Source: an uncultured Chloroflexia bacterium (GTDB taxonomy: Bacteria; Chloroflexota; Limnocylindria; Limnocylindrales; CSP1-4). Taken from it: a stretch of DNA of 64,000 bases. This document shows, piece by piece, positions 11,559 to 18,035 of this stretch (position 1 is the stretch's first letter; the number at the start of each line of letters is the position of its first letter). The stretch lies in the NCBI GenBank assembly GCA_963752475.1, contig CAVVYR010000006.1:224001-288000 (forward strand), read 5' to 3'. Below the pieces are notes generated by a model. The model saw only the letters and a list, made by a program, of their open reading frames with translations. It was not told the DNA's origin and did not search any database. The position numbers and the translations under genes are program-made.

Positions 11559-11621
11559 ATGAAGCCTCACGGTACTCGCATGGCGATGCCCAAGGCCCCG
11601 CCGGGATGGGCGAGGGCCTGA
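11559..11621 (+). CDS. Candidate 20-aa attenuator leader peptide MKPHGTRMAMPKAPPGWARA (Met8, Met10)
   Basis: Directly after promoter; codons 12-17 complementary to terminator 5' arm; same layout as the dap leader. Confidence 0.7.
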   Translation: MKPHGTRMAMPKAPPGWARA

Positions 11622-11665
11622 GGGAGCGCGCCCGAAACCAGCGCTCACCATCAGGACGGATCCCC

Positions 11666-11710
11666 GGGGCCGCGACCAACGAAGCGAAGGTCGCGGCCTT
11701 CGTGATTCCT
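11666..11710 (+). terminator. Attenuator terminator before thrC-like gene
   Basis: GGCCGCGACC-11 nt-GGTCGCGGCC followed by TTCGTGATT (weak U-tract). Confidence 0.6.
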
Positions 11711-11763: not shown

Positions 11764-13116
11764 ATGACGCAGATCGCCATCCGCCCCGCTACCGAGACCA
11801 CCGACACCGCACCGGCCCCCATCGGGGGCAGCACGTCGACCACGACCGACCAGAGCTTCACTCCCGGCTACACCGGTCTGCGCTGTCGCGCCTGCGGTAC
11901 CGAGGCCGCTGACGGCCCGGTCTTCGTGTGCAGCCGATGCTTCGGTCCGCTCGAGCCGCAGTACGACCTCGACGGCATCCGACGGCGCCTCACCCGCGAG
12001 ATCATCGACGCTCGCGATCCCGATATCTGGCGCTGGGCGGAGCTGCTGCCGATCACCGAGCTCCCGACCACCGGCCTCCACGTGGGCCAGTCGCCGCTGA
12101 CCGATGCGCCCCGCCTCGCCGCGCGCATCGGCCTCGACAGGCTCTGGGTCAAGGACGACTCGCGCAACCCCTCGCTCTCGTTCAAGGACCGCCCGGTCTC
12201 GATCGCCGCGGCCCGGGCCAAGGCCTGGGGCTACCACACGCTCGCCTGTGCCTCGACGGGCAACCTCTCGGCCGCCGTGGCCGCGGCGGCTGCTGCTCAC
12301 GGACTGCGCTCGGTCGTCTTCATCCCCGCGGACCTGGAGCCGGCCAAGATCGCGCAGGCCCGCGCGCTCGGCGCCACCGTCGTTCGTGTCGACGGGCCCT
12401 ATGACGACGTCAACCGCCTGTGCCTGGAGCTGACCGACGAGCTCGAAGGATGGGCCGTCCTCAACGTCAACCTGCGCCCGTTCTACGCCGAGGGTTCCAA
12501 GACCATCGCCTTCGAGATCGCTCGGCAACTGGGCTGGCGAGCGCCTGATGCGCTGGTGGCGCCACTGGCCAGCGGGTCCATGTACACCAAGCTCGACCGC
12601 GGCTTCGCCGAGCTGACCGAGACGGGCCTGCTGCACGAGGCAGCGGTGCGCTTCTTCGGTGGCCAGGCCACCGGATGCGGCCCCATCGCCAGCGCCTTCG
12701 AGGCCGGTCAGGACGTCGTGCGCCCGGTCGAGAAGCCGGACACCATCGTGCGCTCGCTGGCCATCGGCTCCCCGGCTGACGGTGGCTACGCCATCAAGCA
12801 GGCTCGTGCGAGCGGCGCGGCCATCCTTGGCGTCGAAGACGAGGCCACCATCGACAGCATCCGCCTGTTGGCCGAGACCGAGGGCATCCTCACCGAGACC
12901 GCCGGCGGCGTGACCCTGGCCGCGCTGCGCCGAGCCATCGACGAGGGCCACATCCAGCGCCAAGAGGAGGCCGTGCTGGTCATCACCGGCAACGGCATCA
13001 AGACGCTCGATGTCCTTGCGAACGACGACGCCAACACGTTGCCCGAGCCCATCGCACCCAGCTTCGACGCCTTCGAGGAGTGGTGGCGGAACACGGCCGA
13101 GGAAGCGGCCGCTTGA
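11764..13116 (+). CDS. thrC: Threonine synthase-family PLP enzyme with N-terminal Zn ribbon; possibly O-phosphohomoserine sulfhydrylase
   Basis: CRAC...CSRC, NPSLSFKDR (PLP Lys), CASTGN, EGSKT, VITGNGIK. Confidence 0.85.
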   Translation: MTQIAIRPATETTDTAPAPIGGSTSTTTDQSFTPGYTGLRCRACGTEAADGPVFVCSRCFGPLEPQYDLDGIRRRLTREIIDARDPDIWRWAELLPITELPTTGLHVGQSPLTDAPRLAARIGLDRLWVKDDSRNPSLSFKDRPVSIAAARAKAWGYHTLACASTGNLSAAVAAAAAAHGLRSVVFIPADLEPAKIAQARALGATVVRVDGPYDDVNRLCLELTDELEGWAVLNVNLRPFYAEGSKTIAFEIARQLGWRAPDALVAPLASGSMYTKLDRGFAELTETGLLHEAAVRFFGGQATGCGPIASAFEAGQDVVRPVEKPDTIVRSLAIGSPADGGYAIKQARASGAAILGVEDEATIDSIRLLAETEGILTETAGGVTLAALRRAIDEGHIQRQEEAVLVITGNGIKTLDVLANDDANTLPEPIAPSFDAFEEWWRNTAEEAAA

Positions 13117-13159
13117 CTCCCGCCGGGGGCGGCGGCGCATCGGCGTCTCCCGAGCTGAC

Positions 13160-13188
13160 TTGACGTCGCCGCCCGACTCCGCGACACT
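13160..13188 (+). promoter_or_regulatory. Sigma70-type promoter of the dap operon leader
   Basis: TTGACG-17 nt-GACACT. Confidence 0.6.
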
Positions 13189-13198
13189 ACGCCGCGGA

Positions 13199-13261
13199 AT
13201 GACTCATCTGTATCTTCTCAAGCCGAAGCCCACGCGGCCCTGCCTGGAGGCAGTGGCCTAG
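13199..13261 (+). CDS. Candidate 20-aa attenuator leader peptide MTHLYLLKPKPTRPCLEAVA (Lys8, Lys10)
   Basis: Follows promoter, precedes lysine operon; codons 12-17 complementary to terminator 5' arm. Confidence 0.75.
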   Translation: MTHLYLLKPKPTRPCLEAVA

Positions 13262-13307
13262 ACGGCTTCGCTCGGGAAACCGACTCGGGGCCGCTAGGCC
13301 GGCTCCG

Positions 13308-13350
13308 AGGGCCGCAGACACCGACCAGGGTGACTGCGGTCTTTTTGTTT
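13308..13350 (+). terminator. Intrinsic attenuator terminator before dapB
   Basis: AGGGCCGCAG-A-CACC / GGTG-A-CTGCGGTCTT stem followed by TTTGTTT. Confidence 0.8.
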
Positions 13351-13417
13351 GGCTCGGAGCCAGCTCAGCCGTCTCGTCGGATCGATCACCCAGCCACGAC
13401 GAGGAACCACACCTACG

Positions 13418-14170
13418 ATGCGAGCACTCATCACCGGCAGCGGCAACATGGGCCGTGCCATCGCCAGCGGCCTCGAGGCGCGCGGTGACGACGTGGCGGC
13501 CACGGCCGGCCGCGAGACCGGCTATCCCGCGGCCGCGGAGATCGGCGCCGTCGATGTCGCCTTCGAGTTCAGCCATGACTCCACCCTGCTCGAGCACATC
13601 GACCTGGGGCTCGCCACGGGCTGTCGTGCCTTCGTCGTGGGCACCACCGGCTGGAGTGCCGCTGACGAGATCGGCCAGGCCTTCGCGGCTCGCCTCAGCG
13701 AGAACGGTGCCCGTGCCGTGGTGGCTCCGACGTATAGCCTCGCCGCGGTCCTCTTCGGCGACATCAGCGAGTACGCTGCCCGCCTCTTCGGCGGCTTCGG
13801 CGACTATGACCCCTATCTCTTCGAGCAGCATCGCGCGGCCAAGGCCGACCGACCCTCTGGCACCGCCCTCGCGGTGGCCAACCGCCTGGTCCCACACCTC
13901 AAGGCGAAGCGCGAGGCGCGCCTGGCCACCGACGCGGGCGCGCCCGATCCCGAGGTGTTGGAGATCGTGGCCCTGCGAGCCGGCAGCCACCCGGGCATGC
14001 ACACCGTCGGGTTCGACGGCCCGGGTGAATCGTTGCAGGTCAAGGTCGAAGCCCGAGACCGCTCGGCCTACGTGGCCGGGGCCATCCTCAGCGCCGACTT
14101 CCTCATCGAGCAGCCAGACCGCACCGGCATCACCGCCTTCACCGACCTGGTCCACGAACGGACCGCCTGA
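13418..14170 (+). CDS. dapB: 4-hydroxy-tetrahydrodipicolinate reductase
   Basis: GSGNMG, VVGTTG, EQHRAAKADRPSGTA. Confidence 0.9.
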   Translation: MRALITGSGNMGRAIASGLEARGDDVAATAGRETGYPAAAEIGAVDVAFEFSHDSTLLEHIDLGLATGCRAFVVGTTGWSAADEIGQAFAARLSENGARAVVAPTYSLAAVLFGDISEYAARLFGGFGDYDPYLFEQHRAAKADRPSGTALAVANRLVPHLKAKREARLATDAGAPDPEVLEIVALRAGSHPGMHTVGFDGPGESLQVKVEARDRSAYVAGAILSADFLIEQPDRTGITAFTDLVHERTA

Positions 14171-14205: not shown

Positions 14206-15126
14206 ATGAGCAACCCCATCTTCAGCGGTGCCATCACCGCCCTCGTCACACCCATGAACGCCGACGGCTCGCTCGACGAGGAGACCCTCGTGGCCATGGT
14301 CGAGCGCCAGATCGACGCCGGCATCAACGGCCTCGTGCCGGTGGGCACGACCGGTGAGTCGCCGACGCTCTCGGCCGAGGAGGACCAGCGCGTCATCGAG
14401 CTGACCATCGAGACCGTGCGGCGCCGTGGCGTGGCCGAGACCACGCCCGTCATCGCCGGCACCGGCTCCAACGTGACCCAGCACGCCATCGAGTACACCG
14501 AAGCCGCCATGCGCCTCGGTGCCGATGCCGCACTGGTGGTCTCGCCCTACTACAACAAGCCCGACCAACGGATGCTCGAGGCCCACTACCGCACCGTGGC
14601 TGACGTGGGCCTGCCGGTGGTGGTCTACAACGTCCCCGGCCGCACTGGTGGCAACGTCGCTCCCGCCACCCTCATGCGCCTCGCCGAGCACGAGAACATC
14701 GTGGCTGTGAAGGAAGCCTCGGGCAACATGGAGCAGATCATGACCATCGTGCGTGATCGGCCCGACGGCTTCGCGGTCCTTTCCGGTGACGACAGCTGGA
14801 CCCTGCCGATCATGGGCGTGGGCGGCGATGGCGTCATCTCGGTGGCCTCCAACGAGGTGCCCCAGGTGATGGTCGAGCTCTGTGCCGCCGCGGCTCGTGG
14901 TGACATGCAGACCGCCTGGGATATCCACTACCGCTATCTGGAACTGATGCGGGTGAACTTCATCACCACCAGCCCGGCGCCGGTCAAGGCGGCCATGGCC
15001 GAGATGGGCCTCATCACCGACGCCCTGCGCATGCCCATGATGACCCTCGACGAGGCCAACCGGGCCCGCGTGCGCGAGGTCCTGGCCGACCTCGATCTGC
15101 TGCCAACGGCCGAGGCTGCTGCATGA
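14206..15126 (+). CDS. dapA: 4-hydroxy-tetrahydrodipicolinate synthase
   Basis: GTTGES, PYYNKP, YNVPGRT, AVKEA. Confidence 0.96.
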   Translation: MSNPIFSGAITALVTPMNADGSLDEETLVAMVERQIDAGINGLVPVGTTGESPTLSAEEDQRVIELTIETVRRRGVAETTPVIAGTGSNVTQHAIEYTEAAMRLGADAALVVSPYYNKPDQRMLEAHYRTVADVGLPVVVYNVPGRTGGNVAPATLMRLAEHENIVAVKEASGNMEQIMTIVRDRPDGFAVLSGDDSWTLPIMGVGGDGVISVASNEVPQVMVELCAAAARGDMQTAWDIHYRYLELMRVNFITTSPAPVKAAMAEMGLITDALRMPMMTLDEANRARVREVLADLDLLPTAEAAA

Positions 15127-16092
15127 TCGCCGACGCCACGTCCGAGCCGAACGATCCGCGGGGGCCGGCAGCCACCGACTCCCACGTGGCTGCCGCCTCG
15201 TCTGCCCTGGCCGCGCGCATCGCCGCCCTTGACGCGGCCTGGGCCGCAAGCCGCCGGCTCCCCGAGTGAGGACCTCATCGCCGAGGTCCGCGTGGTCGTG
15301 GAGGAGCTGGTGGCGGCGCTCGAGGCCGGCGAGGTCCGTGCGGCCACGCCTGACGCCGGCATCGATGGTGGCTGGCGCGTGGACCCCTGGGTCAAGACCG
15401 GCATCCTCATGGGCTTCCGCCTGCCCGGCATGACCGACCTGCGTGATGGACCGATCCTGGCCGCGCGCGACAAGGCCGCCTACGGGCTGCTCGATCTGCT
15501 CGATAGCGACGCCGCGAACGCGGCCTCGGCCGCCGGGGCTCCGTGGCGCGTGGTGCCGGGCGGCTCAGCCGTCCGCAGCGGCGTGCACCTGGAGCCCGGC
15601 GTGACCATCATGCCGCCGTCCTACGCCAACATCGGTGCCTGGGTCGGCCGCGGCACGATGATCGACTCCCACGTGCTCGTGGGCTCGTGCGCCCAGATCG
15701 GGGAGGACGTGCACCTCTCGGCTGCGGTCCAGATCGGCGGTGTGCTCGAACCCGCCGGCGCACGTCCGGTCATCGTCGAGGATGGTGCCTTCGTCGGCGG
15801 TCAGGCGGGCCTCTACGAGGGCGTCACCATCAGTCGTGGTGCCGTCATCGGCGCGGGCACGATCGTCACCGGCCAGAGCCGGGTCGTCGACCTCGTCCAC
15901 GGCCGCGAGCTGCGCGGGACGGCTGAAGCGCCGGTGGTGATCCCGCCCGACGCGGTCGTCGTTCCGGGCACGCGCCCGGCCGGCTCCGATCTCGCACGTG
16001 AGCAGGGCCTGTCGGTCTCGGTGCCGCTCATCGTCAAGTACCGAGATGCCGGCACGAACGCACGGGTGGCTCTGGAGGACGCGCTGCGGTGA
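15123..16092 (+). CDS. dapD: Tetrahydrodipicolinate N-succinyltransferase with apparent +1 frameshift near 15248
   Basis: WVKTGIL, VGSCAQIG, hexapeptide repeats; ATG 15123 coupled to dapA stop reads in a different frame from the gene body. Confidence 0.85.
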
Positions 16093-17357
16093 ACGCCGTT
16101 GCAGCGTCGATCGCGGTCGGGGCGACCGTCGCCGGCCTCGACCCCGCGGCGCTGACCGCGGAGTGGGGGAGCCCGCTCTTCGTCTACGACGCCGAGGTGC
16201 TGCGCTCACGGGCGGCCGCCCTGCAGGCTGCCCTGCCCCAGACGGCGGACGTGGCGTTCGCGTGCAAGGCCAACGGCTCGCCCGTGGTGCTGCGTACGCT
16301 GGCCCAGGCCGGGCTGGGCGTCGACGTCGCCTCCGGCGGTGAGCTGCGTGCAGCGCTGCGGGCCGGCTTCGATCCTGCCCACATCGTCTTCACGGGCCCG
16401 GGCAAGACCGATGCCGAGCTGGCCGAAGCACTCGATGCCGGTGTTGGAGCGCTGACGCTCGAGTCGCTCGAGGAGCTGGACGTCGTGGTCGGCTTCGCTG
16501 GGATCGCGAAGGCGGGCCAGGGCTTGATGCTGCGGCTGGCCACCGAAGGGGAGGCCGAAGGGCTGCCCATCATCAGCGCACCCGGCAACGTCAAGTTCGG
16601 GCTCACCGACGCCGAGGCCGAATCGGCCGTCGCCTCCATGCGCGAGGCTGGAGCGCTGGCGCCCGAGGGCCCCTTCGTGCTGCGTGGCTTCCACGCCTTC
16701 GGCGCCTCCAACGTTCGCGATGCCGCCGTGCTCGTCGAGGCTGCTGCCGACCTCGCCGCTCGCGCGGAGCCCATCGCCGCGCGTCATGGGATCGAGCTCG
16801 AGCTGCTCGACATGGGTGGCGGCCTCGGTATCCCCTATGCCCACGATGAGACGCCGCTCGACATCGCGGGACTCGGTGCGGGGCTGGCCGCGGAGATGCG
16901 CTCGTGGGCCGACCGCCCGGCCTTGCGTGAAGCCCGGTTGCTACTGGAGCCCGGCCGGTGGCTGGCCGGACCTGCCGGTGCCTACCTCTGCCGCGTCACG
17001 CGTACCAAGGAGCGTGGCGGTCGGGTCGTGGCCATCAGCGATGGCGGCATCCACCACCTGCTACGCCCGCGCCTGGTGGGCCAGGACCACCGCGTCGTGC
17101 CCGTCGGTGAGGCAGCCGCTCGTGAGGCGGACGTCGAGGTCGATCTCGTCGGGCCGCTCTGCACCGGTATCGACATCCTGGCCTCGGCCGTGCCCTCGCC
17201 GCGCCCCGCAGCAGGGGACCACTATGCCGTCCTCGATGCCGGCGCCTACGGCTACAGCGAGTCGATGCCGCTCTTCCTGGCGCACCCGACCCCGGCCGAG
17301 ATCGTCATCAGCGACGGCGCCGCCACTGTCTCCCGCGACCGCATCGAACCGGAGTGA
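16089..17357 (+). CDS. lysA: Diaminopimelate decarboxylase family
   Basis: FACKAN, DVASGGE, DMGGGLG, EPGR, GPLC, GAYG; last gene of dap operon. Confidence 0.88.
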   Translation: MNAVAASIAVGATVAGLDPAALTAEWGSPLFVYDAEVLRSRAAALQAALPQTADVAFACKANGSPVVLRTLAQAGLGVDVASGGELRAALRAGFDPAHIVFTGPGKTDAELAEALDAGVGALTLESLEELDVVVGFAGIAKAGQGLMLRLATEGEAEGLPIISAPGNVKFGLTDAEAESAVASMREAGALAPEGPFVLRGFHAFGASNVRDAAVLVEAAADLAARAEPIAARHGIELELLDMGGGLGIPYAHDETPLDIAGLGAGLAAEMRSWADRPALREARLLLEPGRWLAGPAGAYLCRVTRTKERGGRVVAISDGGIHHLLRPRLVGQDHRVVPVGEAAAREADVEVDLVGPLCTGIDILASAVPSPRPAAGDHYAVLDAGAYGYSESMPLFLAHPTPAEIVISDGAATVSRDRIEPE

Positions 17358-17404: not shown

Positions 17405-17650
17405 ATGCCGAAGACCATCCAGATCCGAGACGTTGACGATGCCGTCTATGCCGGGCTGGCCAAGCGTGCGGCCGAGGCGGGTGTGACGGTGCCCGAGCTG
17501 CTGCGTCGCGAAGCAGCCCGCATCGCTTCGCGGCCGACATTGGATGAGTGGCTCGAGCGTACGAGGCGCCGCCCGTCGGGGATCACGCCCGAAGAGGTCG
17601 TGGCGGCGCTGGATGAGTCACGTGGGCCATGGCCCGATGCTGGTCGTTGA
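17405..17650 (+). CDS. RHH antitoxin (VapB/FitA-like)
   Basis: KTIQIRDVDD...LAKRAAEAG RHH pattern; overlaps PIN gene. Confidence 0.85.
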   Translation: MPKTIQIRDVDDAVYAGLAKRAAEAGVTVPELLRREAARIASRPTLDEWLERTRRRPSGITPEEVVAALDESRGPWPDAGR

Positions 17651-18035
17651 CGCGTCGTGTCTGTACGAGGTCGTGGCTGACGGCACCAAGGGCGAGGTGG
17701 CTCGAGCGCGGATGCGGTCGGACCCGGAACTCGCAGCGCCGCACCTCGTGGATGCCGAGGTCCTCGGAGTGATCCGGCGCGACCTGATGCTGGGCCGGAT
17801 CGACCCGACCACTGCCCACCAGGCTGTCGAGGATCTGCGCGACTGGCCCGGGGAGCGCTTCGATCATCGCGTATTGATGACGCGTGCATGGGGGTTGCGA
17901 GATCGCATTCGCACGTGGGACGCGTTCTATGTCGCGCTGGCCGAGGCGTTGGACGCAACGCTCCTGACGTTCGACCAGAGGCTAGCGCGTGCCGTGGACT
18001 CGCACTGCCACGTGGAGGTGCCTGGCGACTACTGA
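17637..18035 (+). CDS. vapC: PIN-domain toxin
   Basis: MLVVDAS, DAEV, DAFYVALAE, LLTFDQRL. Confidence 0.9.
   Translation: MLVVDASCLYEVVADGTKGEVARARMRSDPELAAPHLVDAEVLGVIRRDLMLGRIDPTTAHQAVEDLRDWPGERFDHRVLMTRAWGLRDRIRTWDAFYVALAEALDATLLTFDQRLARAVDSHCHVEVPGDY

Follow-up and report, generated by a model that had tools for sequence, protein, structure and literature searches.

A probable lysine-codon leader-peptide attenuator upstream of dapB, and its re-coded paralogues, in uncultured Chloroflexota

The DNA analyzed here is a 64,000-nt window from an uncultured Chloroflexia bacterium (assembly GCA_963752475.1, contig CAVVYR010000006.1, positions 224,001 to 288,000 of the forward strand); positions below count from its first letter. 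Upstream of a dapB-dapA-dapD-lysA operon in this window lies a short leader with two lysine codons. We consider this element very likely to be a transcription attenuator of the ribosome-mediated (leader-peptide) type, responding to how much charged lysyl-tRNA is available. The case computed here consists of a conserved open reading frame (ORF) and its frame, the Lys codons themselves, re-coded paralogues, three helices with covariation, and two mutually exclusive folds. The original prediction, made from the letters of the window, was of a Lys leader-peptide attenuator before dapB, and it is supported by the kept frame, the near-invariant Lys codons, covariation, the lack of any Rfam match and the re-coded paralogues.

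Lysine codons, and what replaces them before methionine genes

Codon content was compared across leaders collected from related genomes. An ATG-started ORF in the frame of the Lys codons is present in 106 of 123 distinct leaders, compared to 4 and 5 for the other two frames. Among the 38 distinct close relatives found as exact-motif loci, 36 have an ATG ORF of 20–22 codons in which codons 8 and 10 encode Lys; the two exceptions are a leader lacking an in-frame start and one truncated by its contig end. In the window itself, AAG CCG AAG occupies codons 8–10, just as had been noted originally (Table 1). Across 66 leaders of this Lys type, the first regulatory position is Lys in 64 (AAG 63, AAA 1) and the third in 65, while the codon between them is Lys in 22 leaders and encodes P, S, R, A, E, Q or T in the others. 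Two close relatives carry extra Lys codons by insertion (KKSK, KKSKK). The rest of the peptide is not conserved. Codons 2–7 and the last codons change non-synonymously, and the codon in the loop of the first hairpin encodes Leu, Arg or Pro among relatives. A peptide that varies everywhere except at its Lys codons shows the pattern of a leader peptide whose sequence matters only at the sensing codons.

The regulatory codons also keep their place relative to the RNA. The last of them lies 6 nt before the motif CGGYC in 62/66 Lys-type leaders (and in 56/58 leaders of the second type described below), and the stop codon, 13–19 codons after the first regulatory codon, is always at or past the 3′ arm of hairpin H1.

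What we take to be the decisive and strongest evidence for a Lys-codon attenuator comes from sequence comparison with paralogues whose coding tracks the downstream pathway. Two covariance models were used: R1, built from 36 sequences, and R2, a broader model. Among the weaker model matches there surfaced copies of the same scaffold with ATG-TGY-ATG (Met-Cys-Met) in place of Lys-x-Lys. We classed 124 leaders by their codon window and identified the first downstream gene by tblastn; 63 of these leaders make up alignment A3 and 61 are hits from A4, the latter being 60 from the lower-scoring of about 194 R2 matches plus the copy in the window (L101). The 66 Lys-type leaders precede DapB in 64 cases and DapA in one, with one locus too short to tell. 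The 58 Met-type leaders precede MetY-like genes in 53 cases and ThrC-like genes in three, with none found in two; at 7/8 Met-type loci checked, Pfam assigned the downstream gene to Cys_Met_Meta_PP. No leader of one type was seen before the genes of the other pathway among the 124, a pattern that does not amount to a statistical test, the genomes being kin. Nor was a third amino-acid type seen among them. A codon window that switches with the pathway fits a switch that reads codons, and would not be predicted by a ligand-binding RNA.

Met-type paralogues share with the Lys leader the hairpin plan, the CGG CCC core, the codon spacing, the overlap of antiterminator and terminator, and the promoter spacing. 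They differ in having ATG-TGY-ATG instead of AAG-NNN-AAG, and metY-like or thrC-like genes downstream. In the Met window, the middle residue is Cys for 45/58 leaders (TGT 39, TGC 6) and less often Gln, Ala, Phe, Arg or Tyr. Given this predominance of Cys, the metY switch may respond to both of the sulfur amino acids. The Met-type copy in the window (11559-11707) matches R2 with E = 6.6e-8 and stands directly before a thrC-like gene (11764-13116).

The promoter of the Lys leader lies where the original prediction put it (TTGACG, 17 nt, GACACT), by direct reading of the sequence, and its boxes keep their position in relatives. The pattern TTGnnn-N16-18-nAnnnT occurs upstream of the ATG in 69/106 leaders, and in 57 of these 69 it ends 9–10 nt before the ATG. 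In the window, the ATG at 13199 follows the end of the –10 box by 10 nt, with no Shine-Dalgarno sequence; this distance suggests that the 5′ untranslated region (UTR) is very short or absent. A simple consensus scan of 12900-13600 called 0 promoters and 0 terminators. Its silence at the leader reflects criteria ill-suited to a –10 box that agrees with TATAAT at 3/6 positions and to a stem with bulges (two bulged A's). Five RNA-library runs contain small shares of the stretch. The four examined gave contigs only, mostly of relatives, in which starts, ends and strand are not readable; contigs span both terminators, and carry no weight either way.

Table 1. Features of the Lys-type leader, its downstream operon and the Met-type leader, in window coordinates
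Feature	Position	Strand	Details
Promoter	13160-13188	+	–35 TTGACG 13160-13165, 17-nt spacer, –10 GACACT 13183-13188 (sequence reading)
Leader ORF	13199-13261	+	ATG 13199-13201, 20 codons, stop TAG 13259-13261; predicted peptide MTHLYLLKPKPTRPCLEAVA
Regulatory codons AAG CCG AAG	13220-13228	+	Lys8, Pro9, Lys10
P1, anti-antiterminator hairpin	13224-13270	+	Lower helix A:D, CGAAGCC 13224-30 / GGCTTCG 13264-70 (minimum-energy fold)
H1, upper hairpin of P1	13236-44 / 13249-58	+	Loop TGGA (minimum-energy fold)
Antiterminator 5′ strand	13234-13249	+	GCGGCCCT 13234-41 and GGAG 13246-49; pairs with 13303-15
Antiterminator 3′ strand	13303-13315	+	CTCC 13303-06, G, AGGGCCGC 13308-15
Middle hairpin, read-through fold	13255-13300	+	GGCCTAG 13255-61 / CTAGGCC 13294-13300; CGGC 13263-66 / GCCG 13290-93; apical TCGG-GAAA-CCGA
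F:H hairpin, terminating fold	13284-13309	+	CTCGGGGCC 13284-92 / GGCTCCGAG 13301-09
Intrinsic terminator	13310-13350	+	GGCCGCAG-A-CACC 13310-22 / GGTG-A-CTGCGGTC 13329-41, then TTTTTGTTT 13342-50
dapB (4-hydroxy-tetrahydrodipicolinate reductase)	13418-14170	+	First gene under the putative attenuator; Pfam DapB_C 4.7e-21, DapB_N 3.7e-5
dapA	14206-15126	+	Pfam DHDPS 5.2e-89; TIGR00674 325 bits (cut-off 206)
dapD (tetrahydrodipicolinate N-succinyltransferase)	15229-16092	+	NF008808 250 bits (cut-off 204); Pfam THDPS_N_2, Hexapep
lysA-like diaminopimelate decarboxylase	16089-17357	+	Pfam Orn_Arg_deC_N 1.2e-38; TIGR01048 263 bits, below cut-off 297.9
Met-type leader L101	11521-11707		–35 TTGTAC 11521-26, –10 TACAGT 11545-50
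Met-type leader ORF	11559-11621		ATG 11559 to TGA 11621, predicted peptide MKPHGTRMAMPKAPPGWARA; Met codons 8 and 10 at 11580-82 and 11586-88
Met-type terminator	11668-98		GGCCGCGACC 11668-77 / GGTCGCGGCC 11689-98, then TTCGTGATT 11699-11707

Two mutually exclusive folds of the leader RNA

The leader RNA (13190-13352) folds with an energy of –82.7 kcal/mol (z = –3.61), and 0/200 shuffled sequences fold as well. For the free leader, energy minimization gives the terminator form, with three local hairpins, rather than the long pairing drawn in the original prediction. All the parts of that pairing are nevertheless in place. When the complementarity of every proposed arm pair was checked by script, 13234-13249 proved complementary to 13303-13315, with an overlap of 13310-15 with the terminator 5′ arm; the arms of the middle hairpin (13255-13300) are complementary where claimed, and the terminator with its T-tract sits at 13310-13350, as called. 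The strand AGGGCCGC shares six bases (13310-15) with the terminator 5′ arm, corresponding to six of the eight in the lower arm. The two folds are mutually exclusive: 13234-58 can pair within P1 or with 13294-13315, and 13310-15 with 13234-39 or with the terminator 3′ arm, but neither segment can do both at once.

To quantify covariation, we used alignment A3 (63 sequences), which was fitted to the terminating (OFF) fold, so that the counts lean towards that fold. In the OFF fold, 85% of pairs are formed and 19 pairs are changed on both sides, compared to 7.9 in shuffles; 0/500 shuffles reach 19, and slid controls are far lower. H1 is 88% paired and F:H is 96.3% paired, each with 4 pairs changed on both sides. 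The lower stem of the terminator is 99.2% paired, and an A-U pair there becomes G-C in 28/63 sequences. In the antiterminator helix (13234-41 with 13308-15), pairing reaches 98.4% and 3 pairs have changed on both sides; the read-through (ON) fold as a whole has 8 such pairs versus 4.4 in shuffles (1/500). Compensations in the antiterminator can be seen by eye: G-C becomes A-U in L020, C-G becomes U-A in L081, and the closing U-A pair is C-G in Met-type copies and G-C in L099. G13234 is the invariant third base of a variable codon, and it is used by the antiterminator helix and not by H1. Column counts for the middle hairpin are weak because the region aligns poorly between genera; by eye, its partners vary by clade yet remain complementary.

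Two further features lie between the T-tract and dapB. Directly after the T-tract is the conserved CTCGGAGCC (13353-13361, + strand), which is complementary to 13301-09. Other genera have CCTCCG at this place; by eye, that motif is the complement of both the 13301-09 counterpart in those genera and the dapB Shine-Dalgarno sequence. As CTCGGAGCC is transcribed only past the termination decision, it may act on the translation or stability of the read-through mRNA. Further along, a hairpin formed by TCTCGTCG (13372-79) and CGACGAGG (13397-13404) covers part of the dapB Shine-Dalgarno GAGGA (13401-05). By eye, relatives have a different complementary pair at this place (GGTCCC / GGGACC). This hairpin may represent a second, translational layer of control.

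The proposed switch and the explanations that compete with it

In the mechanism we favor, the promoter (13160-88) would start the transcript almost directly at the 20-codon ORF (13199-13261). The OFF fold would comprise P1 (A:D plus H1), F:H and the terminator (13310-41) with its T-tract (13342-50), and the ON fold would be one long hairpin, in which 13234-41, 13246-49 and 13255-61 pair with 13308-15, 13303-06 and 13294-13300, respectively. When Lys-tRNA is plentiful, the ribosome would reach the stop codon at the foot of H1, cover the 5′ strand of the ON fold, and then leave. After its departure, the local hairpins and the terminator would form, and transcription would end near 13346-50. When Lys-tRNA is scarce, the ribosome would wait on codons 8–10, with its front edge near 13230-38. 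There it would occupy A, break the P1 clamp and stand at the foot of the antiterminator, with most of 13234-41 still available for pairing. This would shift the balance to the ON fold, and RNA polymerase would read into dapB-dapA-dapD-lysA. Translation of the ORF, stalling within it, and the 3′ end of the short transcript are parts of this account that we infer.

We assessed this path by equilibrium folding with ribosome masks, reading out how probable the four terminator base pairs bordering the T-tract are; the terminator core formed under every mask and was thus an uninformative readout. For the window sequence, the terminator-base probability is 0.97 in free RNA, about 0.5 with a mask ending at 13225-27, about 0.36 with a mask ending at 13233-35, and again 0.97 with a mask ending at 13238 or later or with a ribosome on the stop codon. 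A decoy pairing of 13234-41 with 13285-92 was seen with the ribosome at the stop codon, and was dropped; by eye, the complementarity is not kept in other genera.

Several observations weigh against the proposed attenuator or its switching path. Any ribosome position bringing the terminator base below 50% exists in only 24/63 relatives, leaving 39 with none. When the ribosome is placed on the last Lys codon and the mask reaches 11–14 nt past the first base of that codon, the terminator base falls below 50% in 0–1/63. It is also below 50% in 5/63 when the RNA is free, and in 10/63 when the stop codon is occupied. Helix A:D, the lower part of P1 and the ribosome-sensitive clamp of the model, is only 55–71% paired column-wise. 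Covariation in the antiterminator consists of few events, two of the pairs being changed in one sequence each and the third in a handful, and because the sequences are kin, the counts overstate independence. In some relatives the T-tract is weak (e.g. L014, L078). Finally, there are just two Lys codons in the leader, and Lys is a common amino acid.

The original prediction held that stalling frees the antiterminator and that full translation covers it. This is plausible for the window sequence, in which the terminator-base probability drops from 0.97 to about 0.36, and finds a counterpart in only the 24/63 relatives mentioned above. Because masked folding is mixed across relatives, the identity of the device is well supported, whereas the path from stall to read-through is one we infer; as to which ribosome position gives which fold, the modelling leaves us about evenly divided.

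A variant of the same device, included in our overall confidence in an attenuator and in itself rather unlikely, would make the ribosome act as a timer. A ribosome delayed at the Lys codons would sit late on 13249-61 as 13308-15 emerges, giving read-through, while a fast ribosome would be gone by then, allowing H1 to re-form and termination to follow. The geometry points this way: since the antiterminator strand (13234-41) precedes its competitor (13249-58) in the transcript, read-through under such timing needs a late ribosome on 13249-61. With the ribosome on the last Lys codon, part of 13234-41 would be hidden, and the equilibrium model then yields the full terminator in 62–63/63 sequences; moreover, the stop codon is always at or after the H1 3′ arm, and the ribosome-at-stop state already disfavors the terminator in 10/63. 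The same state, however, keeps the terminator in 53/63, and slow release would predict read-through when lysine is plentiful. Timing of this sort also depends on assumed rates of release and transcription.

The remaining alternatives dispense with a ribosome that senses lysine. It is highly improbable that the leader is a metabolite- or protein-binding RNA (a new riboswitch, or a target of the TRAP or PyrR kind) in which the short ORF is incidental. Such an RNA would account for the very high nucleotide conservation across 13229-13341 and for the lack of synonymous changes in CGG CCC TGC ... GAG GCA within the genus, but this conservation can be attributed to the overlapping helices. A binding RNA would not account for an ORF frame kept in 106/123 leaders versus 4–5 in other frames, or for a fixed three-codon window that goes from Lys to Met/Cys exactly with the downstream pathway, with no cross-over in 124 leaders. 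Known binding RNAs were also looked for. None of the 4227 Rfam families matched anywhere in the window at the gathering score, and at E ≤ 10 the region 13050-13480 gave three unrelated chance matches only (E > 2), none of them a lysine riboswitch, T-box or leader-peptide family. The lysine riboswitch model (RF00168) gave no match at E ≤ 0.01 in the whole genome (88.8% complete), while the same model matched in four control genomes. The Rfam scan proposed with the original prediction thus turned up neither a lysine riboswitch nor a T-box.

Even less credible is a nascent-peptide arrest element responding to a drug or to general translation stress rather than to lysine. K-x-K at a fixed place could suit such an element, and the MTH... 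N terminus of the leader is reminiscent of resistance leader peptides. But the genes downstream are for lysine biosynthesis and not for resistance, in the paralogues, which precede methionine genes, M-C-M fills the same position, and the peptide is otherwise free to vary. We give least credence to an absence of regulation, with the hairpin and T-tract serving only to terminate the thrC-like gene upstream, and chance accounting for the ORF and the alternative pairings. No other terminator-like site is found between the stop of the thrC-like gene (13116) and 13310, and in one relative an RNA-library contig runs from the thrC-like 3′ end through the leader, as this view would have it. On the other hand, a conserved promoter separates the thrC-like gene from the leader, the leader precedes dapB in other surroundings in other genomes, and the ORF and helices are conserved with covariation.

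Distribution, neighboring genes and biological meaning

By BLAST, the leader stretch is conserved in 23/24 other genomes of the genus and in 0/16 of a small-genome sister family. An exact two-motif pattern retrieved 35 further loci in metagenome-assembled genomes, titled Candidatus Limnocylindrales, Chloroflexota or Chloroflexia. With R1, the element was found in 29/44 genomes of the family and in 4/50 of a second family in the class, and in 0/6 and 0/49 genomes of two further families. With R2, it was found in 108/150 sampled family genomes, representing 42/49 genera; this count takes in one unpublished genome (G239), which was counted only. In a phylum-wide draw with R2, only weak matches were obtained outside the class. 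Of these, L170-L172 and L174 lie inside long ORFs and look false, and L173 is ambiguous. Weak R2 matches in the genome of the window (L057, L102-L106) likewise look false, being inside long ORFs. Three R1 matches with E above 1e-5 (L095, L097, L098) were omitted as likely false, L092 is a duplicate of L091, and a reverse-strand match (L113) was dropped. L095 (G065:C61:2500-6800; E = 4e-5), left out of all counts, precedes a gene that starts like ribosomal protein L10 and is probably an unrelated structured leader.

In the window, the Met-type and the Lys-type leader enclose a single gene, the thrC-like one. Two further ThrC paralogues are present in the genome, with 37% and 34% identity. Four leaders read M-A-M; three of them (L101, L154, L165) precede a ThrC-like gene, and the fourth (L147) is in a locus of 786 bases. 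According to two papers (PMC12172450, PMC13759103), Streptomyces MetM is a homocysteine synthase acting on O-phosphohomoserine, and a cyanobacterial ThrC is 51.6% identical to MetM, with a SAM riboswitch upstream of metM there. The gene at 11764-13116 may be MetM-like rather than a threonine synthase. At the other end of the lysine operon, the lysA-like gene is followed by a PIN-domain ORF (17544-18035; Pfam PIN, 1.6e-11).

The enterobacterial trp, his, leu, thr, ilv and pheA operons are the classical cases of leader-peptide attenuation. Like them, the Lys leader has a short ORF, here predicted to be translated, with codons for the operon's own amino acid, and an intrinsic terminator before the first structural gene; an alternative pairing takes the terminator 5′ arm, and ribosome position is predicted to decide between the two. 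It differs from the classical attenuators in sensing lysine with only 2–3 regulatory codons, in having no Shine-Dalgarno sequence and, by all appearances, a very short or absent 5′ UTR, and in matching no Rfam leader family. Moreover, the 5′ arm of the first hairpin doubles as its antiterminator strand, the fold for read-through is a single long hairpin in place of a 2:3 stem, and its lineage is the Chloroflexota. The lysine riboswitch (L-box, RF00168) also provides lysine-dependent control in the leaders of lysine genes, often via a terminator, but it binds lysine directly and needs no ORF.

Lys leader-peptide attenuation has reportedly been described for the lysine (alpha-aminoadipate) cluster of Thermus thermophilus, where Lys codons in a short leader peptide are said to control lysine biosynthesis. 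Going by that report, the original prediction's remark that no well-characterised Lys leader-peptide attenuator is known was probably too strong. As described, the Thermus case belongs to the alpha-aminoadipate rather than the diaminopimelate pathway, and to another phylum. Polycysteine leaderless short ORFs are likewise said to attenuate cysteine genes in mycobacteria. They resemble the Lys leader in that a short ORF, preceded by hardly any 5′ UTR or none, reports an amino acid through its codons, and reportedly differ in the amino acid, the lineage and the RNA. In Sinorhizobium, a short ORF with Thr/Lys codons was proposed as a possible leader peptide in one paper (PMC10117765). A literature search covering main texts revealed no published Lys leader-peptide attenuator of this kind, in Chloroflexota or for a diaminopimelate operon.

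Collectively, these data show the Lys leader to be a real, conserved element and, very likely, a member of a small family of re-coded attenuators, a familiar kind of switch with an unusual amino acid. Bacteria are usually held to control their lysine genes through the L-box riboswitch or through protein regulators. In the present case, from a poorly known class of uncultured Chloroflexota, the ribosome appears to be the lysine sensor. As the element is absent from Rfam, genome annotation currently overlooks it. The pairing of Lys-x-Lys with dapB and of Met-Cys-Met with metY amounts to a codon swap made by evolution, and offers a compact scaffold for asking how few codons suffice and how attenuators change specificity. 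Regulatory codons can also help annotate genes of uncultured lineages, the thrC-like gene under a Met-type leader being one example.

A more tentative reading, which we regard as possible though on the doubtful side, goes further. One leaderless scaffold would have been copied and re-coded within a single Chloroflexota class, with a three-codon change (Lys-x-Lys to Met-Cys-Met) sufficing to move it from a lysine operon to methionine genes, and it would work by a non-classical logic, with the antiterminator strand 5′ of its competitor and one long read-through hairpin. If this is true, the codon window could label gene function, and, judging from the leader at 11559-11707, the thrC-like gene would be a MetM-like homocysteine synthase on an O-phosphohomoserine route to methionine.

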